In this document: positions 5,043-44,966 of the stretch, in pieces
How the letters are laid out: the number at the start of each line of letters is the position of its first letter
Position numbering within the stretch: position 1 is the stretch's first letter
DNA from: Deltaproteobacteria bacterium
Lineage (GTDB): Bacteria; Desulfobacterota; Binatia; UBA9968
Direction: 5' to 3'
Assembly: GCA_016180805.1 (NCBI GenBank)
Contig: JACPAM010000277.1
Coordinates: 1-46,252, forward strand
DNA length: 46,252 nt
Notes under the pieces: generated by a model
Told to the model about the DNA's origin: nothing
Database searches by the model: none
What the model saw: the letters and a program-made list of their open reading frames with translations, nothing else
Position numbers and translations under genes: made by a program

Positions 5043-5057
5043 TGGTACAGAATTTGC
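5043..5057 (+). promoter_or_regulatory. Putative sigma54 (-24/-12) promoter for the island cluster
   Basis: TGGTACAGAATTTGC vs consensus TGGCAC-N5-TTGC with exact GG-N10-GC spacing. Confidence 0.45.
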
Positions 5058-5364: not shown

Positions 5365-6417
5365 ATGGCGCAGAACCAAACGCAACTCGGCTTTGTCATT
5401 GACCTGAACAAGTGTATGGGTTGTCAGACCTGCACCGTGGCCTGCAAGCTCTTGTGGACCGACGCCAAAGGCATGGACCACATGTGGTGGATGAAAGTAA
5501 ACACCATGCCTGGGCACGGATACCCCAAAGACTGGCAGAAAATGGGGGGAGGTTACGATGGTGCGGAAAAGCTCGTCCTGGGCAAAAAGCCTGCCATGGA
5601 GGATTACGGCGGGGTCATGGAGTTCAATTACGAGCAGGTCTTCTACGGGGGCAAGGGACCGGAGGTACACCTGGGGCCCAAACAGAAGCCTAACTGGGGC
5701 CCCAACTGGGACGAGGACATCGGGGCGGGGGAGTATCCCAACGGCTACTACTTCTACCTCCCCCGCTTCTGCAATCACTGCTGGAAACCAGCCTGCGCCG
5801 AGGCCTGCCCTTTCCAAGCCATCGAGAAACGGGCGGAAGACGGTGTGGTACTCGTTGACGAGACGAAGTGCGCCCGGTGCGGGGACCCCGTCTGCATGGC
5901 GGGTTGTCCCTACAAGGAGATCTTCTTTAACGACTTTGCCCATGCCGGCCAGAAATGCAATGGCTGTCTCCCCCGGATCGAGCAGGGGGTGGCGCCCGCC
6001 TGCGTGCGGCAGTGTCCGGGGCGATGTATCTGGGTGAACTTCCTGGACGACGAGGAGGGAACCGTCCACAAGTTGGTGAAGCAATGGAAGGTCGCGCTGC
6101 CGTTGCACCCGGAGTTCAACACCGGGCCCAACGTATACTATGTTCCCCCTTTGGCCCGGGTCCGGCTGGATGAGAACGGAGACGTTGACGAAAGCAAGCC
6201 CCATATCCCCATCGAGTATCTGAGGTCGCTGTTTGGGCCCGGTGTGGACGAGGCGCTGGAGATCATAAAGCAGGAAATGGCCAAGCGAAGAAAGGAGCCC
6301 AAGGAGCCTTCGGAGCTGTTGGACCTGTTGATCGCCCGGCACTGGAAGGAGCTTCTGGGGCCCTTCGCCAAGGACCCCGGCGAGGTCAAGATCAGTTCAC
6401 AAGCGGCGAACGAATAG
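5365..6417 (+). CDS. Type II DMSO-reductase-family Fe-S beta subunit (EbdB/SerB/NarH-like)
   Basis: DLNKCMGCQTCTVACK, MWWMKVNT.PG.GYP, PNWDED.G.GEYPN, YLPRFCNHC, PLHPEFNT.PNVYYVPP; ggagg RBS before ATG 5365. Confidence 0.93.
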   Translation: MAQNQTQLGFVIDLNKCMGCQTCTVACKLLWTDAKGMDHMWWMKVNTMPGHGYPKDWQKMGGGYDGAEKLVLGKKPAMEDYGGVMEFNYEQVFYGGKGPEVHLGPKQKPNWGPNWDEDIGAGEYPNGYYFYLPRFCNHCWKPACAEACPFQAIEKRAEDGVVLVDETKCARCGDPVCMAGCPYKEIFFNDFAHAGQKCNGCLPRIEQGVAPACVRQCPGRCIWVNFLDDEEGTVHKLVKQWKVALPLHPEFNTGPNVYYVPPLARVRLDENGDVDESKPHIPIEYLRSLFGPGVDEALEIIKQEMAKRRKEPKEPSELLDLLIARHWKELLGPFAKDPGEVKISSQAANE

Positions 6418-6448
6418 ATGAAACGAGAGCGGTGATAGGGGGGACGGC

Positions 6449-7123
6449 ATGGAGGTGGTTTTGGAAAGACAGGATGCAGTATCAACAGGCGCCCGAAGCA
6501 AGCTTTACGCTCTGCTGGCGCATGGTTTTCGCTATCCCACGGCCTCCCTCTTTGAGGCGGTCAGGGGTGGGCAGTTCCTTTCGGAGGTGAAAGCCGCCGC
6601 CTCCCAGCTACCTTACCCGTTTACCGTGGAGGGGACGTTGGGCTCGCGGCTTTCCTGGGATCGTCAGCAATTCGAAAACCAGTTCATTTGGCTGTTCGAT
6701 GTAGGAGGGCCGAACCCCAACACAGGGGAGTGGGAAGTGCCCTGCTTCCTGTGCGAAGGGGAGTACGGCGGGGGAAGGCTGAAAGTGATGCAGGACGCCC
6801 TGCGCTTCTACCACCACTTCGGGCTGAGTCTTTCGCAGGAGAAGGGGGAACGGGACCGACCGGACCACCTTTCCGCGGAGTTGGAGTTCCTGCACGCGTT
6901 GACCTTCAAGGAGGCGGAGCTTTGGCAGCAGGGGAAAGGGGAGGAGGCATTACGTCCCTATCGGGGTGCGGAGCGGGACTTTCTGCTGTTCCATCTGGCG
7001 GACTTCCTGCCTCAGGTGGCCGCGAAGGTGGTACACCGAAACATTTCCTTTTACTCGGACCTTGCCCGCCTGGGGGAGCACTTCTGCCAGGCGGAGCTGG
7101 CTTACCTGCAGCGTGGGGCTTAA
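6449..7123 (+). CDS. TorD/DmsD/EbdD-family molybdoenzyme maturation chaperone
   Basis: FY..FGL, RPDHLSAELEFLH, RDFL..HL, FY..LA. Confidence 0.9.
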   Translation: MEVVLERQDAVSTGARSKLYALLAHGFRYPTASLFEAVRGGQFLSEVKAAASQLPYPFTVEGTLGSRLSWDRQQFENQFIWLFDVGGPNPNTGEWEVPCFLCEGEYGGGRLKVMQDALRFYHHFGLSLSQEKGERDRPDHLSAELEFLHALTFKEAELWQQGKGEEALRPYRGAERDFLLFHLADFLPQVAAKVVHRNISFYSDLARLGEHFCQAELAYLQRGA

Positions 7124-7251
7124 GCGACCGATTTGCCGTCGGGGAGGATCAAGAGGATCAAATGGTCGGTTTGAACTTGAAGTTGGTGGGCGTAGCGTTC
7201 AAGGGGTGACGCCAAACAAATACAGTTTTTCGTAACCGCGGGAGGTCTGAC

Positions 7252-8904
7252 ATGAAGCGATGGCAAGTTTTATTCTCAGTGGCAGGCACTGTGATGGCAT
7301 TGATGTTGGTTGCCCGCAGCCTGACGCCAGCCGTGGTGGCCCCGAAGGGCCACTTACGCATGGCCCTTTCCTCTTTGGGCGCTGCCGAGAGGTTTCTTCC
7401 CTGGGCGGACCCTGGCTGCGAGCCTTTTATCTTGCAGCGGGTCGTCTACGATTTTCTGCTTTACTCGGACCTCGATACCGGGGAACTGCGACCAGGCCTG
7501 GCGGAGCGCTGGGTGGCTGAGGACGGGGCAAAGGCCTGGCGGTTTTACCTGCGTAAGGGGGTCCAGTTCCAGCAGGGCTACGGAGAGATGACGGCTGAGG
7601 ATGTCAAGTTCACTTTTGAGCGCTTGATCTCCAAGGATTCGCTCGCGTCTTGGGGGAAACCGCTTGCCCGTGACCTGGACCGGATTGAAATAGTGAACCC
7701 TTACGAGATTGTTTTCCGTCTGAAGAAACCTGATGTAACCTTTCCTGCCAACACGGTGGAGGTGCGTTGCCAAGTAGTCATCGTGTCGAAAAAGTATGTG
7801 GAGTCTGTTGGCGAGGCTCAGGCGGCGGAAAAGCCCGTGGGCAGTGGGCCCTTCCGATTGGTGGAGCATCGTCGTCGAGTGACAGCCCGGTTTGAGGCCA
7901 GCGTCCCCCATTGGAGAAAGAGCCCTGGCTTTGCCAGTATGACCCTTTATCGGGTTGAGGAGCCAGCAGCGCGGCTCGCGATGTTGAGAGCCGGCGAGGT
8001 GGACGTAGCCGAGATCCCGTACAAGTTGCTGAAAGAGGCCGAGGTGGCTGGATTCGCCTTCGCCCGCAGCAAAGCAGCCAGCGTCTATCATATACATCTC
8101 GGGGGCATGATTAACCCCAAGAACAAGCACTTCAACCCCAATATCCCCTGGGTGGTCAACGCGGCGGATCCGAGCAGTGCGAAGAGGGCTCTCACGGTGC
8201 GTAAAGCCCTCAACCTGGCGGTAAACAAACAGGAGATCGTTGACTCCATCTTCTCGGGGAAGGGCGAGCCGTCGATCTTCGCCTTTCTGCCTCCGGGCTC
8301 GGTGTTTGCTCCTGCCGGTCTTAAGCCCTATCCCTATGACCCGGAACAGGCCCGCAAACTGCTGGCAGAAGCTGGCTATCCGGGCGGACGGGGCTTTCCT
8401 ACTGTAACCGCGCGGCTGGTACCCTTCCCTGGCCGGGCCGAGCAGGTGGATGTGGCTGAGGCTGTAGCGGGCTACTGGGAGAAAAACCTGGGTCTCAAGG
8501 TAAAACGAGAGGTAATGGATTGGCCAGCCCTGGCGGCAAAACTGAAGGTCCGGGATGAGGCGGGGATCATCTGGGCGTATGGCACTATTCCTCGCCCGCT
8601 TGGCGAGCCCTTGGTGACTATGATGTCCTGGGTCCACAGTGGGGCCATGTATAGCGCCATTGGGGAGATTCCGGAGGTGGATCGGCTCTATGAGGCGGTC
8701 ATGAAAGAGGTCGATCCTGAGAAGCGGAAACTGCGGTACCGTGATCTGGCGCGCTATATCTATGATAATTACCTCGTGGTGCCCATCGGTTCTGTCGATG
8801 CGCAGTATGCGGTGAACCCCAAGGTGGTGGATGTAAAAAAGTGGCGCTTAGTGCCAGGCGAAACTTACATTCACAACTACGAATTTATCGAACCAGTCAG
8901 GTAG
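7252..8904 (+). CDS. Peptide/nickel-type ABC transporter substrate-binding protein (family 5)
   Basis: Signal-like N-terminus, PGLAERW, LRKGVQF, TAEDVKFTF, PVGSGPF, VRKALNLAVN, YPYDPEQARKLL. Confidence 0.93.
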   Translation: MKRWQVLFSVAGTVMALMLVARSLTPAVVAPKGHLRMALSSLGAAERFLPWADPGCEPFILQRVVYDFLLYSDLDTGELRPGLAERWVAEDGAKAWRFYLRKGVQFQQGYGEMTAEDVKFTFERLISKDSLASWGKPLARDLDRIEIVNPYEIVFRLKKPDVTFPANTVEVRCQVVIVSKKYVESVGEAQAAEKPVGSGPFRLVEHRRRVTARFEASVPHWRKSPGFASMTLYRVEEPAARLAMLRAGEVDVAEIPYKLLKEAEVAGFAFARSKAASVYHIHLGGMINPKNKHFNPNIPWVVNAADPSSAKRALTVRKALNLAVNKQEIVDSIFSGKGEPSIFAFLPPGSVFAPAGLKPYPYDPEQARKLLAEAGYPGGRGFPTVTARLVPFPGRAEQVDVAEAVAGYWEKNLGLKVKREVMDWPALAAKLKVRDEAGIIWAYGTIPRPLGEPLVTMMSWVHSGAMYSAIGEIPEVDRLYEAVMKEVDPEKRKLRYRDLARYIYDNYLVVPIGSVDAQYAVNPKVVDVKKWRLVPGETYIHNYEFIEPVR

Positions 8905-8959
8905 CCCTATCGGACATGGTTCACCTTATCGAGCGGCCTGAAAGGTAGTTATCTCGGAC

Positions 8960-9883
8960 ATGGGTCGGTATATCCTGGGTCACATAGTCCAAGCGGTGTT
9001 CACTATGTGGATAGTGGTCACCCTTGTTTTTGGACTCGTAAGGTTGGCAGGAAGCCCGGTTGACATCCTGGCGGGGGAGTTAGCTTCCCGTGAGCAGGTA
9101 GAAGCCCTGAAGCAACGTTTTGGCCTCGATAAACCCCTGCACGTCCAATACGGAATGTATCTGTGGGGCATCCTGCGCGGGGACTTCGGGGAATCTGTTA
9201 TTACCCGTGAGCCAGCCATGGCCGAGGTTCTCCAACGGTCTTGGGCGTCTGTGCAGCTGGGTGCTGTTGCCATGGTGTTTACACTGGCTATGGCTTTACC
9301 CATTGGAGTATATGCTGCTGTATACAGGGGACGCCGTCTGGACAGGCTCGCTAGCGCCTTTGGCATTCTCGGCCAGGCTGTCCCTCCCTTCTGGTTAGGC
9401 ATCCTGCTCATCTGGCTCTTTGCCGGGCAACTACGCTGGTTGCCGGCGGCAGGTAAGAGTGGACCAGCATCCTTCGTTATGCCGGTAATAGTAATAAGCT
9501 GGTATGCAGTAGCGGGTATTATGCGCTTGACTCGATCTACGATGCTCGATGTGCTGGATAGCGAGTATATCAAACTCGCCAGAATCAAGGGGCTCCCGGA
9601 ACACTCGGTCATCTGGAAACACGGCTTAAAAAATGCCGCTATACCGGTCATCACCTACGGGGCGCTTATCTTTGTGGGCCTCTTCCTGGTGGGTTCTGTG
9701 GTGGCGGAAACGATATTTACCTGGCCAGGGGTAGGCCGTCTTATCATTCTCCAGTCAGTGCGCTTCCGTGACTTCCCCGTGGTACAGGCTGCCGTTATCT
9801 TTATCTGCTTCCTGTACGTGACGGTTAACCTATTCGTAGACATCCTCTATAGCTACCTCGATCCCAGAATCAGGCGAGCCTAG
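8960..9883 (+). CDS. Peptide-type ABC permease, DppB/OppB-like
   Basis: GLDKPLHVQY, GDFGES, EYIKLARIKGL, LDPRI. Confidence 0.93.
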   Translation: MGRYILGHIVQAVFTMWIVVTLVFGLVRLAGSPVDILAGELASREQVEALKQRFGLDKPLHVQYGMYLWGILRGDFGESVITREPAMAEVLQRSWASVQLGAVAMVFTLAMALPIGVYAAVYRGRRLDRLASAFGILGQAVPPFWLGILLIWLFAGQLRWLPAAGKSGPASFVMPVIVISWYAVAGIMRLTRSTMLDVLDSEYIKLARIKGLPEHSVIWKHGLKNAAIPVITYGALIFVGLFLVGSVVAETIFTWPGVGRLIILQSVRFRDFPVVQAAVIFICFLYVTVNLFVDILYSYLDPRIRRA

Positions 9884-10762
9884 ATGCAAATAGCGATCAG
9901 AGTTCCGGCAGCGCGAGTCAAGAGACTGGTGGTCCCATTAAGGCAAGTGCCAGTCCTTCCACTGGCTATCCTGTTGCTGTTGGTCCTTACTGCCCTCCTG
10001 GCTCCCGTCCTCGCTCCCGGGTCCCCTACAGAGCAGAATCTAGGCAAACGGCTTCTACCCCCTGCCTGGGTCGGAGGTGGATCCTGGGACTACCCTCTGG
10101 GAACCGACCTATTCGGCCGAGATATTCTGAGCCGAGTGATCTACGGCGCTCGCATCTCGCTCATGATCTCTATGACGGCCATAGGAGTCGGGGGGTTATT
10201 TGGGATCCTCGTAGCCCTGCCGGCTGGCTACTTAGGAGGCAGGGTGGATATGTTGTTAATGAGGGCTGTAGACGTGGCTCTGTCTATCCCCACCATTTTG
10301 ATCGGGATTGTTCTGGCAGTGACTCTGGGGCCCAGCTATGAAGCCGTTATCTCTGTTATCGTCCTCTTTGTCTGGCCGAGATATGCTCGACAGGTCAGGG
10401 GCGAAACGCTTGCCATTAAGCAAAGAGATTTCATCGCCCTGGCGAAGATTGCCGGTAGCTCTCGGGCCAGGATCCTGATCGTCCATATTTTTCCGAACCT
10501 GGTGCCTACACTGCTCGTCCTAAGCAGCCTCCAAGTCGGGGCAGCCATTATCATGGAGGCCACCTTGAGCTTTCTCGGTGTGGGGATTCCACCGCCAGCC
10601 CCGGCATGGGGGGTGATGGTGGCCGATGGCAAGGATCTGGTGGTATCTGCCTGGTGGGTATCTCTATTCCCGGGCATCGCCATCCTCCTTACCGTCCTTA
10701 GCCTTAACCTTCTGGGGGACTGGCTCCGAGACCGCCTCGACCCTAAGCTGAGGCAGGTGTAG
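9884..10762 (+). CDS. Peptide-type ABC permease, DppC/OppC-like
   Basis: LGTDLFGRDILSRVIYGARISL, EATLSFLGVG, NLLGDWLRDRLDP. Confidence 0.93.
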   Translation: MQIAIRVPAARVKRLVVPLRQVPVLPLAILLLLVLTALLAPVLAPGSPTEQNLGKRLLPPAWVGGGSWDYPLGTDLFGRDILSRVIYGARISLMISMTAIGVGGLFGILVALPAGYLGGRVDMLLMRAVDVALSIPTILIGIVLAVTLGPSYEAVISVIVLFVWPRYARQVRGETLAIKQRDFIALAKIAGSSRARILIVHIFPNLVPTLLVLSSLQVGAAIIMEATLSFLGVGIPPPAPAWGVMVADGKDLVVSAWWVSLFPGIAILLTVLSLNLLGDWLRDRLDPKLRQV

Positions 10763-10774
10763 ACGGAAAGGACA

Positions 10775-11743
10775 ATGACCCAGCCGTTGTTGCAGGTGGA
10801 GAACTTGCGAACTTACTTCTTGAGCCGTTGGGGAACGGTTAAGGCCGTGGACGGTGTGAGTTTCAGCGTGCACCCAGGAGAGACCCTCGGGCTGGTCGGC
10901 GAATCCGGCTGTGGCAAGAGCGTGACTTGTCTATCCATCCTCCGGCTGGTCCCACAACCGGCGGGAAAGATTGTGGGAGGGAGAGTCCTTTGGGAGGGGG
11001 AGGACTTGCTAAAGAAGAGCGAGGTCGAGATGCGCCGTATCCGGGGCGGTTGCATCTCTATGATCCTTCAGGACCCCATGACCTCTCTTAATCCGGTTTT
11101 TTCTATCGGTGATCAGGTCGCCGAAGGGATCGCAATCCATCGGAGACTAAAGGGAAAGACGCTTTGGCAAAAGACCGCCGAGGTCCTGGGTCTGGTCCGT
11201 ATTTCATCGGCGAAGGCTCGGCTTCGCGACTACCCCCATCAGTTCAGCGGCGGGATGCGGCAGCGCGTGGTGGGAGCCATATCCCTTGCGTGCGAGCCTC
11301 GCCTCCTCATTGCGGATGAGCCGACGACCTCGCTGGACGTGACTATCCAGTTGCAATATTTGAACCTGCTGAAGGAAATTCAGAGGCGATCCGGAGTAGC
11401 CATGATCTTTGTCACCCATGATTTTGGCATCGTGGCCAAGACATGCGACCGCGTGGCCGTCATGTACGCCGGCAGGATCGTAGAGATCGCAAGCGTTCGA
11501 GACCTGTTTAGCAGACCTGCGCATCCCTATACTCGGGCCCTCCTCGACTCTATCCCCAACCTGGAGGAGCAGGTAGATCGGCTCTACTCTATCGAAGGGC
11601 AGCCGCCTGCGCTCCACAGCCTTCCACCAGGTTGCGCCTTCGCCCCTAGATGCCCCTATGCTACGCGCCGTTGCGACCATGAATATCCTCCCGAGGTATC
11701 CCTAAACTCGGGCCATATGGCGCTGTGCTGGAGGGTCGCCTAA
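10775..11743 (+). CDS. Peptide-type ABC ATPase, DppD/OppD-like
   Basis: [36 protein letters not shown]. Confidence 0.95.
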
Positions 11744-12762
11744 TGACAGAGGTGCTGCTGGAAGCCCAGAGCCTGAAAAAGCACTTTCCAGTAACCGCGG
11801 GCTTTATTCTGGCGCGGACCGTGAGCTCAATTAAAGCGGTTGACGGAGTTTCCTTTATTATCCGGCAGGGGGAGACTCTGAGCCTAGTCGGAGAATCTGG
11901 GTGCGGCAAGACCACCACCGCGAAGATGATTCTGTTGTTGGAGGATCCCACCATGGGGAGCATTCTCTTCCGTGGCAAGGATCTTCAACGCCTTACCCCC
12001 GCGGAGATGAAGGAGTACCGCGCCTCGGTGCAGGCAGTGTTCCAGGACCCGTGGAGTTCCCTCAACCCCCGCCTGCGGGTGGGCTCTATCATCGGCGAGC
12101 CTTTGGTGGTGAATCGGGCCTTGCCAAGCAAGGCGATCCAGGAGCAGGTTAGGGAACTCCTGCTCCAAGTGGGGTTGCGCCCGGACCACGACGACCTGTA
12201 CCCGCACGAGTTCAGCGGCGGGCAGCGACAGCGGATCGCCATAGCCCGAGCGTTGTCTCTCAAGCCAGCCCTGATCGTGCTTGACGAGCCGGTCTCGGCC
12301 CTAGACGTCTCTATTCGAGCCCAGATCATGAACCTGCTGAAGGACCTGCAACATCAATATGGCCTCGGCTACCTTCTCATCGCCCACAATTTGGCCACCG
12401 TGCGCTACATGAGCCACCGGGTAGCAGTGATGTATTTGGGCAAGATTGTGGAGACGGCCCAGACAAAGCAACTTTTCTCTCACCCTCAGCATCCGTACAC
12501 ACGGGCCTTGATCTCGGCCGCCCTTCGCTCCCGCCCCGATACCCAGGATGAAGAGATCGTGCTTCCCGGAGAGGTACCGTCCCCGTTGGATCCGCCGCCG
12601 GGCTGCTCCTTTCACCCCCGATGCTCAAATGCATTGCCCCTGTGCTCCAAGACAACGCCTGTTCCCCGAGAGCAAGAGAGGGGACATTGGGTAGCGTGCC
12701 ATCTTGCCGAGACTCTGACCGTCGCAACCCGTGCCACAATTTCTGCGGAGGAGCGACCATGA
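11743..12762 (+). CDS. Peptide-type ABC ATPase, DppF/OppF-like
   Basis: [31 protein letters not shown]; TAATG coupling to the previous gene. Confidence 0.95.
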
Positions 12763-12771
12763 TTCCCTCGA

Positions 12772-12925
12772 AAGCTCCTCGGGGGCCGAGCCATCAGGCC
12801 GCGGCCGATGGACTAAGCTCCCTCGGGGAAGTCGTACCGTCTGTAATCGGACGTCCGCAGCCTCGCTCGTGCACCCCCTCGGTCGCGGACAAGGACGGCC
12901 GCGGCCTTCCTTCTCGTCCCCCTCG
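12772..12925 (+). repeat. Modular palindromic interspersed repeat, copy A
   Basis: Contains gcggccgatgg, aagctccctcggg and gtctgtaatcggacgtccgcagcctcgctcg..cccctcggtcgc shared with copies B-E. Confidence 0.85.
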
Positions 12926-13045
12926 GGCTTCAAAGTGAAAGTGTGTCGGTGCAGGGGGCGGCTCGGGCCTTTCATATGCAAGGGCGAAGCTGCCGAAATC
13001 TTTACAGACGCGATTCAAATGAGGACGAGAGGAGGGAGGTAGCCA

Positions 13046-13285
13046 ATGGTCATGGAAATGCGCTTGCCCCAGTTCGACATGCTGGATGCAGATGCGACGA
13101 TCCTTCAGTGGCTCAAGAGGGAGGGAGATCACATCAGCGAGGGTGAGCATGTGGTAGAGATAGAAACGGCCAAGGCGGCGGGAGCGTTGGAGGCCCCGGT
13201 CTCCGGGGTTCTGGTTCGTATCCAGGCGCCAGTAGGGGCGACGGTAACCTCGGGCGCGGTTTTGGCCCTCATTGAGGAAGCCTAA
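13046..13285 (+). CDS. Stand-alone lipoyl-domain carrier protein
   Basis: WLKREGD..EGE..VEIETAKA...EAPVSG; lipoyl Lys retained; own RBS and stop, no E2 core. Confidence 0.9.
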   Translation: MVMEMRLPQFDMLDADATILQWLKREGDHISEGEHVVEIETAKAAGALEAPVSGVLVRIQAPVGATVTSGAVLALIEEA

Positions 13286-13327
13286 CAGCAGGGAGAGGCG
13301 GCGACATCAATCAAAGGAGGCAATGTC

Positions 13328-14371
13328 ATGGAGCGTGCCACTATGCTGCGTAGCGAACTGGATGCGGAAGTTTGTCTTCAGATGTATCGGAAGATGGTGA
13401 CGATCCGCCACTTTGAGGAGGTTTCGGGGGGGGCCTACCGGCGGGGGGAGTTCTGGGGGCCCACTCATTCCTCTGCAGGGGAAGAGGCGGTGGATGTGGG
13501 CGTGTGTACTGCCCTGGAACCGAGTGACAAGATCGTGGGCTATCATCGAAGCCACGGCCTATTCATAGCGAAGGGGTCAGAAATCAAAGCCCTCATGGCT
13601 GAACTCTTTGGCAAGATCACCGGCGCGAGCAAGGGCAAGGGCGGCTCCATGCACTTAGCCGACCGTGCCGTTGGCGGTGTGTGCTCGGGCGGCGTCCTGG
13701 CCTCCTCGGTCCCCGTTGCGGTAGGCGTGGCCCTAGCCCTCAAGAAAGAAAGAAAAAATCAGGTGTGCGTGGTCGGCGTAGGAGACGGCTCCTTCGAGGA
13801 GGGCCATGTCGGTGAATCCATGAACCTGGCTTCACTGTGGAAAGTGCCCCTGATTTTCCTGCTCTACAACAACAAGTATTTTCAGTTGATTAGTGCCCGG
13901 AGTCGTTCTTCGGCGACCCTCCTCTCGGATCGGGCCATCGGCTATAACATCCCGAGGACCGTGGTGGACGGTCAGGATGTGGTAGAGGTCTACCGAGCGA
14001 CCAAGGAAGCGGTGGACCGGGCCCGCTGCGGGGAAGGGCCTAGCCTGATCGAAGCCATGACGTATCGTTACCAGGCACAGGCAGCCCGGGCTGGTTTGGG
14101 TGGCGAGGAAGACTTCCGCCCGCAGGACGAAAGGGAGTACTGGTTCAACCGGGATCCCATAAAGCTGTTTCGGGCCTGTTTGCTGGCTGCCAAGATGGCT
14201 AATCCCGAGGAGTTGGAAGCTGTCGAGCACGAAGTGAAAGCGGCTGTTCAGGAGGCCCTTCACTACGCTCGGAAGAGCCCGTACCCAGATGTGGGCGAGA
14301 TGTTTACCGATATGTACTCCCAGCCGGTCCATCCGGCGTGGTATTTATCTCAGGAGGTGGTGCGGAAATGA
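13328..14371 (+). CDS. ThDP-dependent 2-oxoacid/acetoin dehydrogenase E1 alpha-like subunit
   Basis: GEEA, HRSHG, GKGGSMH, GDG..EG...NN ThDP motif, VDGQDV, DPI. Confidence 0.93.
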   Translation: MERATMLRSELDAEVCLQMYRKMVTIRHFEEVSGGAYRRGEFWGPTHSSAGEEAVDVGVCTALEPSDKIVGYHRSHGLFIAKGSEIKALMAELFGKITGASKGKGGSMHLADRAVGGVCSGGVLASSVPVAVGVALALKKERKNQVCVVGVGDGSFEEGHVGESMNLASLWKVPLIFLLYNNKYFQLISARSRSSATLLSDRAIGYNIPRTVVDGQDVVEVYRATKEAVDRARCGEGPSLIEAMTYRYQAQAARAGLGGEEDFRPQDEREYWFNRDPIKLFRACLLAAKMANPEELEAVEHEVKAAVQEALHYARKSPYPDVGEMFTDMYSQPVHPAWYLSQEVVRK

Positions 14372-15375
14372 CTGCGCAAACGGGTACTCACCCTGTAACC
14401 TACGGGGAAGCGGTTTTGGAGGCATTGCGGGAGGAGGCGCGTCGGGACTCCCGGATCTTCGTGATCGGTTACTACCTGCCTAATATGATCTTCGGCTACT
14501 ATGGCGCCGAGCCTCTGATGGGAGAGCTGGGGGAAGACCGATTCATGTCGTCCCCTGTCACCGAATGCTCCATGGCGGGGGCGGCCGTGGGCGCTGCCAT
14601 GATGGGCCTCCGCCCTGTAGTGGACTTGATGGCCCCTAACTTTGCCTATTATGCCACGGATCAACTGATTAACCAGGCGGCCAAGCAACGTTACACGTCC
14701 GGAGGGCAGTTCTCCGTGCCGGCGGTGTTTGTTCTCCACTACGGGGCTAGGCGAAGTGGCACCCACCATAACGACCGTTCCCATCCGATGTACGTGCAGG
14801 TTCCCGGGTTGCAGGTGCTTGCACCCTGCACGCCCTACGACGCTAAGGGGCTCTTCAAGAGCGCCCTAAGGTCGGAGGACCCGGTCATCTTTTTCCTCGA
14901 CAACATCCCGGGGGAACGGTTCGGAGGCCGACATCAACAGATCCCCGATGAGGAATACCTGGTGCCCATTGGCTCGGCGGTGGTCCGGCGGGAAGGGAAA
15001 GATATCACTGTTGTCCCGATCTGCTGGCTGCACCAGACGATGGAGGCCGTGACGCAGTTGGAGCAGGAAGGGATCTCCGCGGAAGTGGTCGAGCCGAGGA
15101 CCCTGAAACCACTCGATGTCGCCAGCATCATAAGATCGGTGGCGAAGACGGGAAGACTGGTCGTTGTGGACTCGGCTTCTCCTCACAGTGGCACGGCCTC
15201 GGAGGTGGCGGCCGTGGTAACTGAGGAGGCTTTCTCCTATTTGAAGGCGCCTATCCTACGGGTGACGGCGCCGGACGTTCATGTGGGCTTTAGTGCCGCT
15301 TTAGACGACGCCGCGTGGCCGTCCAAAGAGCGAATTGTAGCCGCGATCAAACGGTGCCTGTCCTACCAACGCTAG
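14368..15375 (+). CDS. ThDP-dependent dehydrogenase E1 beta-like subunit
   Basis: SPVTE (catalytic Glu), GLRPVV, DQLINQAAK, PYDAKGL, RTLKPLD, KTGRLVVV; ATGA overlap with E1 alpha. Confidence 0.93.
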   Translation: MTAQTGTHPVTYGEAVLEALREEARRDSRIFVIGYYLPNMIFGYYGAEPLMGELGEDRFMSSPVTECSMAGAAVGAAMMGLRPVVDLMAPNFAYYATDQLINQAAKQRYTSGGQFSVPAVFVLHYGARRSGTHHNDRSHPMYVQVPGLQVLAPCTPYDAKGLFKSALRSEDPVIFFLDNIPGERFGGRHQQIPDEEYLVPIGSAVVRREGKDITVVPICWLHQTMEAVTQLEQEGISAEVVEPRTLKPLDVASIIRSVAKTGRLVVVDSASPHSGTASEVAAVVTEEAFSYLKAPILRVTAPDVHVGFSAALDDAAWPSKERIVAAIKRCLSYQR

Positions 15376-15401
15376 GAAAAACGGCAGTGAAGGAGGAGAC
15401 G

Positions 15402-18227
15402 ATGGCCCAACTGAGTCTGGAGTTACAGCATCTAAAGGCCAAACAGGCTGGCTCGCTCCCCGAAGTATCGCAATACGACCTTCGGCAGCTTCGCAACGCT
15501 CTCTGGGATTGGGATAAGGTGACCAAGGCGTCCCACCCTCGCGGGTGTGCATGGCAACAGTTTTGTAGCTTCAATGTATTCTCCAAGGATGGCGTAATGC
15601 TCAGAGAGGAGCAGGTGGCCGGATATCCTGCCCGCAACGATCCTATGGTCCCCGATCTGAACCCTCGGGGTTGCCAGAAAGGGGCCTCTTATGTTCGCCG
15701 GATTTATGCGCCCGATCGCCTCAAGTATCCCTTAGAACGGGTGGGGGAGCGAGGTGAGGGCAAATGGCGACGAATCAGTTGGGAGGAGGCGCTCACGAAG
15801 ATCGCCGACACGATCGTCGATGTCCTGGCCAAGGATGGTCCCGAGGCCGTCGTTAACAGCATAGGCACAGGGGCCGGCCAGAGCTACGCTTCCGCCGGGA
15901 TCAACAGTTTCCTTAATGCTATGGGAGCTCCGCTCCCTTCCCAAACCACCGAAATCGGGGATTTCTGGCCCGGCACCGCCTTGACTTTCGGCAAGATCTA
16001 TCTTGGCGATTCGGCAGACAACTGGTTCTACGCCGATATCATTTTGATCTGGGGAGGCAACCCCGCTTTCACCCACATCCCGAACTACCACTACCTCGCC
16101 GAGGCCCGCTACCACGGCGCCGAGATCATCGTCATCTCCCCCGATGCCAACGCCTCAACGGTCCACGCCGATCTCTGGGTGCCTGTGAATCAGGGAGGCG
16201 ACGCCGCCCTGGCCCTTTCCTTGGCGCAAGTCATCCTGAGCGAGGGCCTGCATAAGGAGGAGTTCCTCAGGGAGCAGACCGACCTTCCTTTGTTGGTGAG
16301 ACCGGACACCGGAAAGTTCCTCCGCGAGGAGGATTTGAAGCGAGGGGGCGGAGAAGGCGTCTTCTATTTCTATGACTTGAACAGCCGGAGGGTGGTCGAG
16401 GCTCCCCGTAGGAGCTTGGCCCTGGAGGGGATGCTGCCCGCTCTGGACGGGGAGTATGAAGTGAACACCCGCCAGGGAAAGGTCAAAGTAACCCCGGTTA
16501 TGGCGCTGCTCAGAGAGAAGCTCGATCGGGAATACACCCCGGAGCAAGCCTCCCCGCTCTGCGGGGTATCCCCGCAGATGATCCGCAGGCTTGCCCGGCG
16601 GATTGCTCAGGCCAAGGGAGTGGTCAATATATCCACCTCCCTGTGGGGCAAGTACTATCACGGCGACCTGATCGAGCGGGCGATGATTCTCGTGTTTGCC
16701 CTGTGCGGCCACATAGGCCGAAAAGGGGCCTCTTACAACGCCTTCCCGGTGCTCTCCCTGGATACGGCGGTGGGAACCATGCTGCGACGAGGGGGCCAAG
16801 TCATCCTCTCGGCTGCATCGGCGGACCCACGCTACCCAGGGTGGAAGGAAAAGGGTTTCACCGACGAGATGATCCTCTACGAGTATGCCCAAGAGTCTTT
16901 CAGGTCCCTTACTCCTATGTCGTTGTTCTATCAAGTGCACGGGGGGCTCCTCAAATTAATCGAGGAAAATAATAGCTGGGATCCCGACTTGAAGCGCCCG
17001 CTGGCAGACTATATACGGGAATCACGCGAGAAGGGCTGGCAATTTCAAAGTCGTGCCCTGGCTATCGAGCCCCGGGTCATATTTGCCGTAGGTAGCGATT
17101 TCTTCCGAAGAGTTCGGGGAACCGGTCATCTCCTCCAGCACCTGTTGCCCAAGCTCAGGCTGTTGGTAACCATCGACTGGCGCATGAGCGCCACCGCTCT
17201 GTACTCCGACATCGTGCTGCCCGCTGCTACTTGGTACGAGGCCACCGCCGTTCTCCTTACGGCCAGGCCGATAACGCCCTATCTCCATGTAAACGAGCAG
17301 GCGGCAGAGCCTCTATACGAGGCCAAGACTGAATGGGAGATGTTCGTACTCCTTACCCGGAAGATCGAAGAGCAGGCCAGGCGCAGGGGCTTGGCGAGCT
17401 ATCGCGATGCTCCGGGGAATGAGAGACGTTTTGATCAGCTAGTGGACAAGATGACCGCGGGAGGGCTTTATGCCGAAGACGGCGCAGAGGATTTAGCTAG
17501 GGACATCTACTACAACGCGGCCAACGTAGAGGTAACGGACTGGGAGGAGTTCAAGCAGCGAGGGATAGCCCCTTTTACAGGCATCGGCAACGTGGGAGGG
17601 CCGATGGGCTCCATGGGCAACGCTTGCGATCTCCGGGAGGGGGAGCCCATGGTCCCTCTGGTCTGGCATACCGAAAGGAAGCAGCCTTACCCCACTCTCA
17701 CTCGGCGCATCCAGTTCTACATCGACCACGATTGGTTTATGGAGCTGGGGGAAGCCCTGCCTACTCACAAAGATTCCCCTCGGGCCGGTGGCGACTATCC
17801 CCTTCAACTGACCGGGGGCCATGCGCGCTGGAGCATCCACAGCGACTGGATTGACGACGCTATGATTTTGCGGTTGCAGCGGGGCCAACCGGTGCTGTTC
17901 ATGAGCCAACACGACGCCAGCGCCCGGGACATCGAGGACGGGGACGAGGTGGAAGCCCATAATGATCTGACCTCCTTTCGTATCCAGGCGGTCGTTACCC
18001 CTTGCATAAGGCCCGGGCAGGCGATTGTCTACCACCCGTGGATCAACTACCAGTTTCCGGGATGGCGACATTTTAAAGGGGTCATGCCGTCCCCCTTGAA
18101 CCCTACTCTCCTTGCCGGGAACTCTGGGGGCGAGTCCCACCTGAAGGCCCGAGCGGATGCTTTCCACCCCGGCAATAACGACCGCGATACGAGGGTGGAA
18201 GTCAGGAAGGCAGAGAAGCGCGTTTAA
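15402..18227 (+). CDS. Type II DMSO-reductase-family molybdo-bis-PGD catalytic alpha subunit (EbdA/steroid C25 dehydrogenase/SerA-like), no Tat signal
   Basis: WDKV..SH...C.....C, NPRGCQKG, RLKYPLERVGERGEGKW, GD ligand motif, TLTRRIQFYIDH, HARWSIHS, NDRDTRVEV; aggagg RBS before ATG 15402. Confidence 0.93.
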   Translation: MAQLSLELQHLKAKQAGSLPEVSQYDLRQLRNALWDWDKVTKASHPRGCAWQQFCSFNVFSKDGVMLREEQVAGYPARNDPMVPDLNPRGCQKGASYVRRIYAPDRLKYPLERVGERGEGKWRRISWEEALTKIADTIVDVLAKDGPEAVVNSIGTGAGQSYASAGINSFLNAMGAPLPSQTTEIGDFWPGTALTFGKIYLGDSADNWFYADIILIWGGNPAFTHIPNYHYLAEARYHGAEIIVISPDANASTVHADLWVPVNQGGDAALALSLAQVILSEGLHKEEFLREQTDLPLLVRPDTGKFLREEDLKRGGGEGVFYFYDLNSRRVVEAPRRSLALEGMLPALDGEYEVNTRQGKVKVTPVMALLREKLDREYTPEQASPLCGVSPQMIRRLARRIAQAKGVVNISTSLWGKYYHGDLIERAMILVFALCGHIGRKGASYNAFPVLSLDTAVGTMLRRGGQVILSAASADPRYPGWKEKGFTDEMILYEYAQESFRSLTPMSLFYQVHGGLLKLIEENNSWDPDLKRPLADYIRESREKGWQFQSRALAIEPRVIFAVGSDFFRRVRGTGHLLQHLLPKLRLLVTIDWRMSATALYSDIVLPAATWYEATAVLLTARPITPYLHVNEQAAEPLYEAKTEWEMFVLLTRKIEEQARRRGLASYRDAPGNERRFDQLVDKMTAGGLYAEDGAEDLARDIYYNAANVEVTDWEEFKQRGIAPFTGIGNVGGPMGSMGNACDLREGEPMVPLVWHTERKQPYPTLTRRIQFYIDHDWFMELGEALPTHKDSPRAGGDYPLQLTGGHARWSIHSDWIDDAMILRLQRGQPVLFMSQHDASARDIEDGDEVEAHNDLTSFRIQAVVTPCIRPGQAIVYHPWINYQFPGWRHFKGVMPSPLNPTLLAGNSGGESHLKARADAFHPGNNDRDTRVEVRKAEKRV

Positions 18228-18364
18228 ATAGGATCAGATTCGACTGTTTGTCAACAAAAGACTTGACCCGTCCCCACAAGAAGCCACGAGCGAGCGTGGC
18301 ATCCGCGTTGCCGAATATTGTCTCGAATCAATCAGTGGCATGTGGCTTTATGGCTCCGGGGAGA

Positions 18365-18392
18365 CCTGTCTGCGTGCGGACACGCACAGGCA
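18365..18392. repeat. Short REP-like hairpin
   Basis: ctgtc-tgcgtg-cgga-cacgca-ca-ggcag. Confidence 0.45.
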
Positions 18393-18540
18393 GATAGACT
18401 GCGCTCCGAGGTCATGCTGTGGGTTACGTGAAAAGACCCCTTTGCTCTTTGAGAGGTCGTCAAGATCAGGGGATGAATGTTCTGAACTTTCCCGAGGGGC
18501 AGCGCCACAAGGCACGGGACGTAAGTCCGTGGTACGGGGT

Positions 18541-33728: not shown

Positions 33729-34040
33729 TTACGTCTTAAAATCGGGGTAGCCGATCTTTGCGGTCTTCTCCTTGTAATCTCTGACAAGCTCTTCCCTGGA
33801 TATCTCGTGTGCCCAGACCGCTTCGGTCCAGCTCCAAAGCGTGAACGGGTGGGCGCCGAGGCCGTAGAGCTTGGCGTAATCCCGGTTGCAGAGAGCCTCG
33901 CGCTCCTCCGGGGTGAACTTCAGCTTCTCGCCTTTCTCCCACTTCGCCACGAAGGCTCGGGGAGCGGTCTTATATTCCTTTTCCGCCGCCTCGTTCATGT
34001 TTACGTAATGGATGAACTTGTTCATCAGGTATTTGCTCAT
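33729..34040 (-). CDS. LigA-like small subunit of a class III extradiol dioxygenase
   Basis: MSKYLMNKFI, FTPEEREAL..RDYAKLY.LGAHPF; coupled to the LigB-like gene. Confidence 0.78.
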   Translation of the reverse strand: MSKYLMNKFIHYVNMNEAAEKEYKTAPRAFVAKWEKGEKLKFTPEEREALCNRDYAKLYGLGAHPFTLWSWTEAVWAHEISREELVRDYKEKTAKIGYPDFKT

Positions 34041-34894
34041 ACCGACGCCCCCTCCTTCGCGTCCCAGGAGAAGAACGGAACGGCTGGGAATCCCGCATCC
34101 ACGCCTTCGGCGTGGGAAGCCCGGGATGCATTGGCCACCCCCATCATCATGAGGAAGTTCAAAAAGCCGTGGGTCATGTTGCCCGATTTCTTGAGCTGAT
34201 TGAATGAGCAGTTGTTCACGGCCCCCTGGGCGTCGCCATTGGCGATCCAGCCTATGGCCTTTGCGTCAAACTCCGGATCCATCAGGCGTCCCTCAAACTG
34301 CCTGGGGCCGCCTATCTCCAGGGACAGATGACCGCTGACAAGGACGCCGATTCGTTTGTTCGTCGGCAACGCGTCAACGACTGCGCGAATGGCTCGCCCG
34401 ACCTCGTAGAAGCGCTTGGGTCGCGGCAGCGGCGGGGCGATGCAGTTGGTCAGGATCGGGACGATCGGAATGTCCGTCTCCGGCCGGACGAACATCAGCG
34501 GAACGACGATGGAGTGATCGATGGTGAGCTCGTTGGAGTACGCAAGGTCCACCCCTTGGTCAAAGAGCCCTTCCATGATCTGGTCGGAAAGCTCGACGTC
34601 GCCGGGAAGCCGGCAGGGGGGAAGCCCGAACTCGCGGATTTCGTCGTAAAAGGTCCCGTCGTACGCGTCCATCTTCCCGATGAGAAAAGGCGGCATGTTA
34701 TCCATGAAGAACTGGTGCAGGTGGTCGTTGCCGATGGCGATGAGAACATCCGGCTGTGCCTGCTTGAGTTTTTCCCGCATCAGGTCGATCCGCTCGATGA
34801 CCTTGGCGCAGCCGGGCGGCCGGTTCGGCCGGCCGAAGAGCCGCGGCATGAAAGGATTGTGGGTGATGCCGATGATGGTGACGATCCGGGCCAT
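34037..34894 (-). CDS. Class III extradiol ring-cleavage dioxygenase large subunit (LigB-like)
   Basis: THNP, NDHLHQFF.DNMP, IDHS..VP, SGHLSLEIGG. Confidence 0.88.
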   Translation of the reverse strand: MARIVTIIGITHNPFMPRLFGRPNRPPGCAKVIERIDLMREKLKQAQPDVLIAIGNDHLHQFFMDNMPPFLIGKMDAYDGTFYDEIREFGLPPCRLPGDVELSDQIMEGLFDQGVDLAYSNELTIDHSIVVPLMFVRPETDIPIVPILTNCIAPPLPRPKRFYEVGRAIRAVVDALPTNKRIGVLVSGHLSLEIGGPRQFEGRLMDPEFDAKAIGWIANGDAQGAVNNCSFNQLKKSGNMTHGFLNFLMMMGVANASRASHAEGVDAGFPAVPFFSWDAKEGASV

Positions 34895-34947
34895 GTTCCT
34901 TCCTCCGTGGAAAAATTTTCGCGGGTGTTGTCTTGAAGGTGTGCTTG

Positions 34948-34990
34948 CCGTCGCTACCTCTAGCAAAGCCACCCGGCTTTTGCAACTCTG
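34948..34990 (-). promoter_or_regulatory. Conserved promoter/operator motif, copy 1
   Basis: TTGCAA-17-TAGAGG with TG; 33/43 identical to 38372-38414. Confidence 0.6.
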
Positions 34991-35079
34991 AATAAGCTTT
35001 GTTCTCCGGCCATACTGATACAAACGACTTGACTCGTGTTACGTTTTCTCAGGGGGCAAGCCTTCCGGCCGCGGCTGGA

Positions 35080-35112: not shown

Positions 35113-35203
35113 GGCTCCCTCGGGAAGCCCGCTCTCGGCTGCGGCCGATGGGTTCGTGCCATGAGTCGTGCCGTCTGTAATCGGACGTCCGCAGCCTCGC
35201 TCG
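35113..35203 (+). repeat. Modular palindromic repeat, copy B
   Basis: 6 differences in 91 nt from the reverse complement of copy C. Confidence 0.9.
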
Positions 35204-36592: not shown

Positions 36593-36703
36593 GGGGCGAC
36601 CGAGAGGAGTGCGAGCGAGGCTGCGGACGTCCGATTACGAATGGCACGACTCATGGCACGAACCCATCGGCCGCAGCCGAGCGCGCGCTTCCTGAGGGAG
36701 CTT
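36593..36703 (-). repeat. Modular palindromic repeat, copy C (inverted)
   Basis: Reverse complement reads aagctccctcaggaagcgcgcgctcggctgcggccgatggg...gtccgcagcctcgctcgcactcctctcggtcgc. Confidence 0.9.
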
Positions 36704-36797: not shown

Positions 36798-37778
36798 TCA
36801 CAAAAGGGGCATGACCTTCTTGGCCCAGGCCTCAACCATCTCGTTGTAAATCCTTTCGGGCGGGGTGAGCATAAAGCGGCTCATCCCGGCCCGCTCAATT
36901 TCCTTGACGCGCGCTGCGCATTCTTCGGGTGTGCCGGCGATGGAGAAGCGGCGGACCAAATAGTCGGTAATGTAGCTCGGGTCAAGCCTGTCTTCCAGCG
37001 GCCTCGTGATATCGAAAGCCTCCATGAACTTTTTCACCCCCGCTAGCTCCTCGGGCGGCACCGTCTCCAGAGTGAAGCGGAAGTTATGATGGGCGCGGTT
37101 GGCCAGGCGCGCGCGCACGGTAGCGCGGGCCCGATCGCCGTCTTTATCCACGCAGATCATGCCCGCCGCGACGAGCTCAATCTCGCCTGGCGAGCGCCCT
37201 ACCTCAGCGGCGCCTTGGGCGATTTTTTCTTTCGCCCATTGGAGCACTCGCAGGTCGAAGCCGCTTCCCAGGATCACGCCGTCGGCGACCTTGCCGGCTA
37301 CCCGCAGGCCCCGGGGACCCTCCGCGGAAATATAAAGGGGCACGGGTAATTTCCCAATCTTGAGACCCAGCTTGCCAGTGGGGAACTCGGCGGGATTGCC
37401 CTGAAGCAGCTCCCGGATGGTCTTGAGACCCTCCTCGAACTTTGCGATTGGCGTAGCTTTTCTTGCCAGGCTGTATACCGGACCGTCGCCGGTTCCCATG
37501 CCCAGGATTGCCCGACCCTCGGAGATCTCGTTCAAGGTAGCCGCCGAGCCCGCCAGCACTGTCGGGTCGCGGTAAACCATGTTGGTGACGGCGGTTGCCA
37601 GGCGCAAGCGTTTCGTGTGACCCGCGCACACGGCCAGGGCCTGGAACGGGTCCAGGCAGTTCAATTGGGCATCGGCGGTGAAGATGCCCTCAAAGCCCAA
37701 CTCTTCTGCCTGTTTCGCTCTTTGAATTCCCTGGGAAACATTTCTGATGGAGCCATGCAGGTTGAAACGGACTGCCAT
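36798..37778 (-). CDS. LLM-class (luciferase-like/Mer-like) flavin- or F420-dependent oxidoreductase
   Basis: AEELGF, RLATAVTN..YRDP, SEGRAILGMGTGD, GPRGLRVAG.VADG, AGTPEEC. Confidence 0.9.
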   Translation of the reverse strand: MAVRFNLHGSIRNVSQGIQRAKQAEELGFEGIFTADAQLNCLDPFQALAVCAGHTKRLRLATAVTNMVYRDPTVLAGSAATLNEISEGRAILGMGTGDGPVYSLARKATPIAKFEEGLKTIRELLQGNPAEFPTGKLGLKIGKLPVPLYISAEGPRGLRVAGKVADGVILGSGFDLRVLQWAKEKIAQGAAEVGRSPGEIELVAAGMICVDKDGDRARATVRARLANRAHHNFRFTLETVPPEELAGVKKFMEAFDITRPLEDRLDPSYITDYLVRRFSIAGTPEECAARVKEIERAGMSRFMLTPPERIYNEMVEAWAKKVMPLL

Positions 37779-37782
37779 GGGA

Positions 37783-44958: not shown

Positions 44959-44966
44959 AAAAAGAG

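Follow-up and report, generated by a model that had tools for sequence, protein, structure and literature searches.

The stretch of DNA analyzed here, hereafter the window, comprises 46,252 nucleotides (nt) of contig JACPAM010000277.1 from a Deltaproteobacteria bacterium (assembly GCA_016180805.1). The NCBI lineage under that organism name now runs to Myxococcota, which we regard as an artefact of naming. Between positions 5,365 and 18,227 it carries a gene cluster in which the subunits of a molybdenum (Mo) enzyme related to ethylbenzene dehydrogenase (EBDH) stand together with an ATP-binding cassette (ABC) importer, a lone lipoyl-domain protein and a thiamine diphosphate (ThDP)-dependent E1. 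Comparison with relatives shows that the genes for the Mo alpha subunit, iron-sulfur (Fe-S) beta subunit and chaperone and those for the lipoyl protein and E1 behave as one conserved unit. From the families and the conservation of its genes, we read the cluster with moderate confidence as one catabolic unit. Its Mo enzyme is predicted to oxidize a substrate with water, after which the ThDP enzyme would decarboxylate or cleave the product and load the lipoyl carrier. An earlier note on this DNA had proposed a new catabolic system with a dedicated importer, arguing for a single functional unit from the enclosure of transport and ThDP genes between subunits of one enzyme. All 11 genes lie on the + strand in the order that it gave (beta, chaperone, solute-binding protein or SBP, two permeases, two ATPases, lipoyl protein, E1 alpha, E1 beta, alpha), and the union of Mo and lipoyl-E1 genes holds up. 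The importer, absent from an orthologous cluster, is not always in the unit and cannot be called dedicated, and the enclosure argument does not stand as stated.

Conservation of the unit in relatives

Co-occurrence of this alpha with E1 and lipoyl genes had been proposed as a check on the system. The arrangement is found again, in whole or in part, in three metagenome contigs and in two related genomes, at 74 to 92% identity. One metagenome contig (L057) carries all 11 genes in identical order at 81 to 92% identity, another (L076) runs from permease 1 through alpha, and the third (L089) has E1 beta (80%) followed by alpha (74%). Among the related genomes, G020 retains permease 2, both ATPases, the lipoyl gene, E1 alpha and E1 beta up to the end of contig C257, and contig C256 of G011 ends after beta, chaperone, lipoyl, E1 alpha and E1 beta, which stand there without an importer. 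The succession lipoyl-E1 alpha-E1 beta is kept in all five loci that reach that far, and E1 beta lies directly upstream of alpha in four of the five alpha orthologues with visible upstream DNA. At 49 other loci, whose alpha is paralogous or distant, neither E1 nor lipoyl matches were found; the flanks were as short as 1.5 kb in eight of them.

Two beta genes are present both in the own genome of the window (G000) and in G011: one is of the cluster type (88% identical between the genomes), the other of a generic array type (70% identical to the window's beta). The module therefore comes with a beta and a chaperone of its own. That the core stays constant whether or not the importer is present is a stronger argument for coupling than the conserved order. 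The orthologous group is narrow, with E1 beta orthologues in 3 of 90 genomes of the family and 2 of 401 sampled from the class. Clusters of E1 alpha lie at 99, 83, 83, 76 (P0006) and 68% (P0007) identity, the next being at 50%, and a search among 123 genomes of the order for the one holding the P0006 protein matched none besides G000, G011 and G020.

Within the window, the cluster genes are tightly spaced or overlapping, packed for co-translation (Table 1). E1 beta probably starts with the ATG at 14368, which shares the sequence ATGA with the stop of E1 alpha, and the 26-nt spacer between E1 beta and alpha contains a strong ribosome-binding site. All NCBIfam scores fall under the equivalog or subfamily cut-offs, which marks the cluster genes as divergent members of their families.

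Table 1. Features of the cluster, with positions in the window
Feature	Position	Strand	Evidence and remarks
Fe-S beta subunit (EbdB-like, cluster type)	5365..6417	+	TIGR03478 450.7 bits (cut-off 480.7); PDB 2ivf_B, 4ydd_B E 2e-110
NarJ/EbdD-type assembly chaperone (delta)	6449..7123	+	PF02613 (Nitrate_red_del) 39.8 bits; TIGR03482 124.5 bits (cut-off 152.3)
SBP family 5 (SBP_bac_5; Opp/Dpp/Nik type)	7252..8904	+	PF00496 211 bits; N-terminal signal-like hydrophobic stretch; predicted periplasmic
ABC permease 1	8960..9883	+	BPD_transp_1 140.7 bits
ABC permease 2	9884..10762	+	BPD_transp_1 100.3 bits and OppC_N
ABC ATPase 1	10775..11743	+	ABC_tran and oligo_HPY
ABC ATPase 2	11725..12762	+	ABC_tran and oligo_HPY; start codon uncertain
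Copy of high-copy interspersed repeat	12763..12990		no strand; fills most of the gap between importer and lipoyl gene
Free-standing lipoyl(/biotinyl)-attachment domain protein, 79 amino acids	13046..13285	+	PF00364 57.1 bits
ThDP-dependent E1 alpha	13328..14371	+	PF00676 225.8 bits; TIGR03182 297.6 bits (cut-off 393.85)
E1 beta	14368..15375	+	Transket_pyr and Transketolase_C; PDB 1um9_B E 5e-69; longest open reading frame from 14338
Mo-bisPGD (pyranopterin guanine dinucleotide) catalytic alpha (EbdA-like), without twin-arginine (Tat) signal	15402..18227	+	PDB 2ivf_A E 3.8e-183; TIGR03479 865.6 bits (cut-off 984.75)
Sigma-54-type -24/-12 promoter-like motif TGGTAC-N5-TTGC	5043..5057	+	308 nt upstream of beta

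Radiation of the alphas in the lineage

The own genome (4.46 Mb in 339 contigs, 91% complete) contains about 11 alpha genes or gene fragments of the clade, at 51 to 62% identity, and only two beta and two chaperone genes, which lie on the window contig and on contig C71. Outside the window contig, six alphas stand in tandem on C71 and others are on C299, C16, C187 and C185. On C71 (L011, L012) the order is beta, chaperone and then successive alphas, with genes for a peptidase_U32, a TctC-family protein, a further Mo protein and UbiD interleaved; two more sets of Mo/Fe-S enzyme genes lie upstream on the other strand. Elsewhere the alphas adjoin genes for OCD/mu-crystallin, methyltransferase, PrpD, amidohydrolase_2 and isochorismatase-Dabb proteins. 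Paralogous or orthologous alphas have among their neighbors UbiD, a PaaK-like ligase, a TctC-family protein and amidohydrolase_2.

The excess of alphas over betas is repeated in relatives, with 12 alpha matches to 2 beta genes in G011, 8 to 1 in G002, 7 to 1 in G020 and 9 to 1 in G001. The clade is patchy, with an alpha match in 9 of 41 related genomes and in 8 of 24 from the family. Alphas of Dehalococcoidia and Chloroflexota genomes (37 to 42% identity) also occur in multi-alpha arrays with beta and chaperone. In a FastTree phylogeny of 57 alphas, the window alpha and that of L057 form their own branch (support 100) inside a 21-member clade (support 100). The cluster alpha is one branch of a lineage-specific radiation, and no other branch carries E1 or lipoyl genes. 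Relatives of EBDH that lack a gamma subunit and are predicted to be cytoplasmic have radiated in uncultured groundwater bacteria, and a sister radiation is seen in Chloroflexota; the sharing of two Fe-S subunits by some 11 catalytic subunits in the own genome points to a modular toolkit for the anaerobic oxidation of many organic substrates.

The same arrays weaken the argument from enclosure, as the beta-chaperone-(alpha)n layout of this lineage routinely takes unrelated genes between subunits. They also raise the possibility that the genes of the cluster are juxtaposed without metabolic coupling, an ordinary 2-oxo-acid or acetoin E1 having landed in a beta-chaperone-alpha array, with the ABC system importing peptides or a metal chelate and the Mo enzyme acting on something else. 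We regard this as unlikely, though not negligible. The interleaved genes of C71 speak for it, as do the dispensable importer, the roughly nine other E1 alpha paralogues of the genome and the close kinship of the conserved copies; because all of these are near relatives (74 to 92%), shared ancestry alone could have kept their order. A further point in its favor is an alpha orthologue of G011 on contig C499 (85 to 89% identical, split by a frameshift), which has no E1 genes upstream and whose neighbors, in divergent orientation, encode an NMT1-type binding protein, OCD, a PaaK-like ligase and UbiD. Juxtaposition accounts poorly, however, for the retention of the cluster's own type of beta and chaperone beside E1 genes whether or not the importer is present, for the placement of E1 beta directly before alpha across a short spacer, and for a lone lipoyl protein standing where an adjacent E2 would be expected, an arrangement that no other E1 of the genome shows. 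The G011:C499 alpha itself reads in two overlapping frames of 351 and 598 amino acids (L024, 6414-9237), reflecting a frameshift or an assembly error.

The molybdenum enzyme

Assignment of the enzyme to type II of the dimethyl sulfoxide reductase family, made earlier from the sequence, is borne out, as the closest solved relatives of alpha and beta are the EBDH subunits; perchlorate reductase is the next closest structure and NarGH is far behind. In a HMMER alignment, alpha matches EbdA (2ivf_A) end to end and keeps the aligned FS0 motif H-x3-C-x5-C...C, including the distal Cys. The Asp of its IGD motif aligns with EbdA D223, the Mo ligand, and the Lys aligned with EbdA K450 is kept, the roles of these residues being those described for EBDH; the position of EbdA His192 is Gly, so that the chemistry may differ from that of EBDH. 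An Asp ligand to Mo is listed for the type II clade in an excerpt of PMC10100899. None of the scores reaches the EbdABCD equivalog cut-offs (NF042978, NF042979 and NF042981), with 654.2 bits against 2000 for alpha, 383.9 against 740 for beta and 80.5 against 360 for delta. The chaperone is 85 to 86% identical to its orthologues in G011:C256 (L022) and L057.

The claim that the enzyme is cytoplasmic also agrees with what we find, the N-terminus of alpha having no twin-arginine motif. Across a comparison set of 57 full-length relatives, a Tat motif after the start codon is present in none of the 21 alphas of the cluster's clade, and RRxF[LV] followed by a hydrophobic stretch is present in all eight outgroup alphas (gammaproteobacterial or metagenomic, 33 to 35% identity) and likewise in two Chloroflexota alphas. 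Most of the 21 clade alphas open with a conserved L-x-L-E-L-x-G-L-like peptide, which by analogy to NarG and NarJ we infer may be a leftover chaperone-binding tail. An excerpt of PMC10100899 lists EbdA, CmdA and S25dA as periplasmic hydroxylating members of the family. Genes for the haem-b gamma subunit (EB_dh, PF09459) are found neither on the window contig nor on C71, the only matches in the genome being on C302 and C223. A respiratory oxyanion reductase is a less likely interpretation and was rejected as the principal one, since neither export signal nor membrane anchor nor gamma subunit is present.

In beta, 15 Cys in four groups are invariant among nine sequences (Fer4_11, 89.8 bits), the number appropriate to three 4Fe-4S clusters and one 3Fe-4S cluster; NCBIfam also returns a weak ferredoxin-domain match of beta to PadI (1.7e-9). 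We accordingly predict a cytoplasmic enzyme of alpha and beta whose Fe-S electron wire is intact and has no encoded partner at its end. One way to account for the missing acceptor is a reaction with no net redox change, a hydroxyl transfer or hydration of the kind performed by pyrogallol-phloroglucinol transhydroxylase or acetylene hydratase, with E1 acting on the rearranged product. The alpha-beta composition, the lack of a Tat signal and of gamma, and the Gly at the His192 position would all suit such an enzyme. It is nonetheless the least probable of the explanations that we consider, since in the PDB search alpha is far closer to EbdA (614 bits) than to acetylene hydratase (90.8) or transhydroxylase (29.8), and FS0 is conserved together with the full Cys set of beta.

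The lipoyl carrier and E1

The heterotetramer-type E1 domains are complete in alpha and beta, and the ThDP motif GDG-x26-NN is readable in the E1 alpha translation. The best matches of E1 are to models and structures of pyruvate dehydrogenase (PDH) and branched-chain E1, human PDH E1 alpha being the best PDB match of E1 alpha (E 2e-53). The scores lie under the PDH equivalog cut-offs (297.6 against 393.85 and 299.2 against 321 bits) and so do not fix the substrate class, and homologues of E1 alpha at 46 to 48% identity are named either pyruvate or acetoin E1 alpha by their sources. The 79-amino-acid protein has the N-terminal lipoyl domains of E2 proteins as its best NCBIfam matches, and the Lys of its ET[A/G]KA motif, the modifiable residue at the hairpin tip of the Biotin_lipoyl fold, is invariant in all five orthologues; it is a predicted lipoyl carrier, with biotinyl attachment as the alternative.

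As the earlier note had it, the cluster lacks E2 and E3, with no PF00198 or lipoamide dehydrogenase (TIGR01350) match on the window contig. Five E2 genes and one E3 above cut-off, plus genes of the lipoyl-ligase family, are encoded elsewhere in the genome, and other E1 pairs share a contig with a full E2 on C269, C233, C157 and C124. The cluster E1 is the sole one in the genome with a lone lipoyl protein in place of an adjacent E2.

The affinities of these proteins leave some room for a version close to that of the earlier note, in which the Mo enzyme would introduce a hydroxyl group beside a carbonyl, or form a vicinal diol or dione, and an acetoin-dehydrogenase-like E1 would split a C-C bond, possibly in a ring, without decarboxylation. 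The single best NCBIfam match of the lipoyl protein is the N-terminus of an acetoin dehydrogenase E2 (1.5e-16), some of the E1 alpha homologues just mentioned bear acetoin names, and the resorcinol pathway ends with ring cleavage by BqdLMS (in an excerpt of PMC10084136). This acyloin or diketone cleavage is rather doubtful, however, as E1 alpha scores best against PDH-type models (TIGR03182) and PDH or branched-chain structures, and the EBDH mechanism does not readily accommodate a carbocation beside a carbonyl. Nothing here separates the acyloin version from the 2-oxo-acid version.

The lone lipoyl protein also admits a quite different role as a redox partner. In a closed redox loop, E1 would reduce the lipoyl disulfide while cleaving one intermediate and the Fe-S chain of beta would re-oxidize the dithiol, the free lipoyl protein thereby carrying electrons from E1 to a gamma-less Mo enzyme that reduces or dehydroxylates its substrate; the module could dispense with E3 and with a respiratory acceptor. 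Such a loop would be in keeping with a cluster that encodes no gamma, membrane anchor, E3 or other acceptor, with the restriction of the lone lipoyl protein to the cluster's alpha branch and with the 15 invariant Cys of beta, which suffice for a full Fe-S chain. Yet about 10 other alpha paralogues are likewise without gamma and have no lipoyl partner, making the acceptor problem a general one, removal of the acyl group from the carrier would still call for an E2-like activity, and we know of no dithiol-to-Fe-S interface in the type II Mo enzyme family. We judge the relay improbable; if real, it would be an E3-independent, redox-neutral ThDP-lipoyl-molybdenum system without described precedent. 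A predicted complex of beta with the lipoyl protein scored 0.00 in both of two runs made without controls, which weighs neither for nor against the relay.

Proposed function

In the reading that we prefer, in which the cluster is one catabolic unit, the Mo enzyme would oxidize an activated C-H bond (a benzylic one, or one adjacent to a carboxyl or carbonyl group), taking its oxygen from water. After further oxidation the product would be a 2-oxo acid, or else an acyloin or diketone, which E1 would decarboxylate or cleave, loading the acyl group onto the lipoyl carrier. Transfer to coenzyme A (CoA) could be made by one of the five E2 proteins encoded elsewhere, and the dihydrolipoyl group could be re-oxidized by the E3 encoded elsewhere, amounting overall to an oxygen-independent alpha-oxidation of an organic acid. 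The transporter that adjoins the module would serve for uptake; in the window this is an ABC importer of the Opp/Nik type, and in G011 it is a TctC-like binding protein. Expression probably begins at a candidate sigma-54 promoter upstream of beta.

Several observations lead us to favor alpha-oxidation of a carboxylic acid. PDH and branched-chain E1 give the highest scores in comparisons with the cluster E1, and the genome encodes BamA/Oah, a marker of the anaerobic benzoyl-CoA pathway, above its cut-off (520.6 bits against 464). In addition, the alpha radiation is ringed by aromatic-acid enzymes and carboxylate-type binding proteins, and denitrifiers apply the same logic to phenylacetate.

Other observations count against the proposal. 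The cluster itself contains no gene for a 2-hydroxy-acid dehydrogenase, a CoA ligase or an E2, and both proposed steps release electrons for which no acceptor is encoded. SBP family 5 is atypical as a binder of aromatic acids, and the Gly at the His192 position, the G011 alpha orthologue that lacks E1 genes and the close kinship of the conserved copies count on the same side. A gene of the flavin mononucleotide (FMN)-dependent alpha-hydroxy-acid dehydrogenase family (PF01070, 303 bits) lies on the same strand at 238-1269, with LemA, M48 peptidase and zinc-ribbon genes intervening, and could supply the step from 2-hydroxy to 2-oxo acid; it is, however, 4 kb upstream of beta.

Importer, repeats and promoter

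The importer has the composition of the Opp/Dpp/Nik type, with a family 5 SBP, two permeases and two oligo_HPY ATPases. Its SBP has NikA as the best NCBIfam match (139.7 bits against a cut-off of 393), with DppA at 91.9 against 1005, and in the PDB it matches binders of peptides, nickel and agrocinopine, none better than E 1e-27. Comparison to NCBIfam, the PDB and the Atlas did not narrow the ligand class, and no ligand-specific equivalog was reached.

Because G011 keeps beta, chaperone, lipoyl and E1 genes without it, the importer is facultative, and no orthologue of its binding protein was found in G011 (94% complete) at E 1e-60. Upstream of beta, G011 has instead a gene for a TctC-like binding protein (L022, 1-990) that resembles the TctC-family protein of C71. 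This G011 gene belongs to a very large paralogue family in our genome, where tblastn gives dozens of matches at 30 to 36% identity. Binding proteins of the tripartite-tricarboxylate type have thus expanded in the own genome, and one member is the C71 protein called TctC by Pfam.

A gap of 283 nt precedes the lipoyl gene and, save for the ribosome-binding site, is not conserved among five orthologous loci. Most of it, from 12763 to about 12990, is a copy of an interspersed repeat, and the gap is no old operon boundary. A blastn search of the own genome with this repeat gave 437 high-scoring segment pairs, merged to 297 loci on 172 of the 339 contigs. The repeat is about 170 to 230 nt long (128 loci span at least 140 nt) and contains a long imperfect palindrome; partial copies recur in the window at 35164-35203 and 36612-36638. 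Its high copy number explains a 340- to 1480-fold spike in depth in the contigs of other groundwater runs. A second repeat of lower copy number, at about 18290-18440 just past the alpha stop, has matches on six other contigs, three of them close together on C33, and likewise a depth spike, reaching 533-fold, in other runs. The contigs from four DNA runs that fall on the stretch are short pieces, which at the junction of E1 beta and alpha extend only 30 letters on one side. Rfam at its gathering threshold found no match in the whole window, and hence no riboswitch in the 283-nt gap, whose RNA fold is unremarkable (z -1.1).

Upstream of beta, the promoter-like motif at 5043..5057 is the sole sigma-54-like match in the 46-kb window (0.13 expected), and the G011 cluster likewise has a sole match, 208 nt upstream of its beta (0.01 expected). 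The pattern follows the sigma-54 -24/-12 consensus; with its final W it found nothing, and without that last letter it found the one site. The genome encodes 18 sigma-54 activators, none on the window contig. A scan for sigma-70 promoters and terminators gave 6 promoter-like sites where 6.2 were expected.

Other genes of the window

Beyond the cluster, the window holds genes for a LigB-type extradiol dioxygenase, a weakly LigA-like protein and a luciferase-like monooxygenase (34037-35023 and 36798-38310). They belong to families of oxygen-using enzymes, here in a genome that also holds markers of anaerobic aromatic degradation. Adjacent genes for subunits B and A of topoisomerase VI (Topo-VIb_trans, TP6A_N, Toprim) occupy 43018-46073 of this bacterial genome.

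Comparison with known systems

O2-independent C-H hydroxylation by EBDH-type enzymes is, to our knowledge, known only from a few periplasmic, haem-containing enzymes of denitrifiers. The enzyme of the cluster resembles EbdABCD (2ivf) in the full-length alignment of alpha, FS0, the Mo-ligand Asp, Lys450, beta and an EbdD-type chaperone. It differs in having no Tat signal and no haem-b gamma, in its gene order from beta and chaperone to a distant alpha, in the change of His192 to Gly and in scores that stay below cut-offs. The steroid C25 dehydrogenases of Sterolibacterium denitrificans have alphas that share beta and gamma subunits. That set likewise combines many alphas with few betas, to judge from an excerpt of PMC7411048, as do the roughly 11 alphas and two betas here. 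The alphas of our genome differ in being predicted cytoplasmic, in lacking gamma, in standing in tandem after beta and chaperone and in having one branch tied to E1 and lipoyl genes.

Anaerobic phenylacetate degradation offers a parallel in logic only, drawn from descriptions of the Pad proteins (PadJ, PadBCD and PadEFGHI). As an excerpt of PMC4453571 describes it, a CH2 group next to a carboxyl or thioester is converted in a Mo-dependent step to a 2-oxo acid, which then undergoes ThDP-dependent oxidative decarboxylation to an acyl thioester. In denitrifiers, phenylacetyl-CoA is oxidized to phenylglyoxylate by the membrane-bound Mo-Fe-S enzyme PadBCD and then to benzoyl-CoA by the phenylglyoxylate oxidoreductase PadEFGHI (excerpts of PMC4453571 and PMC9765128). 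The enzyme families differ from those of the cluster, PadBCD being membrane bound and PadEFGHI not being an E1/lipoyl system.

In the resorcinol pathway, which the cluster resembles in its order of Mo hydroxylase and then cleavage, BqdLMS is similar to pyruvate dehydrogenase. For Aromatoleum anaerobium, an excerpt of PMC10084136 sets out RehLS, BtdLS and BqdLMS as an O2-independent Mo hydroxylation followed by a multisubunit cleaving dehydrogenase, in operons that depend on sigma-54, to which the sigma-54-like motif here may be compared. RehL falls in another subfamily, consistent with the transhydroxylase-like match to alpha of only 29.8 bits, and BqdLMS has three subunits, compared to E1 and a lone lipoyl domain here. 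The 2-oxo-acid and acetoin dehydrogenase complexes share with the cluster the E1 alpha and beta domains, the ThDP motif and the lipoyl Lys, whereas the cluster has no E2 catalytic domain, peripheral-subunit-binding domain or E3.

By profile matches, then, every part of the cluster belongs to a known family. The earlier note did not recognize the combination as described, and we likewise found no account of the gene set, or of cytoplasmic gamma-less EBDH-like enzymes, in the literature outside subscription journals. The E1-lipoyl branch is the most tractable entry point, as it offers a defined unit of beta, chaperone, lipoyl protein, E1 alpha and beta, and alpha, and it may reveal a lipoyl-dependent anaerobic route of alpha-oxidation or a new role for a free lipoyl carrier. 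In that literature, three features appear to be undescribed: the predicted cytoplasmic, gamma-less architecture, the radiation of alphas on shared betas, and the joining of one alpha branch to an E1 and a free lipoyl carrier.

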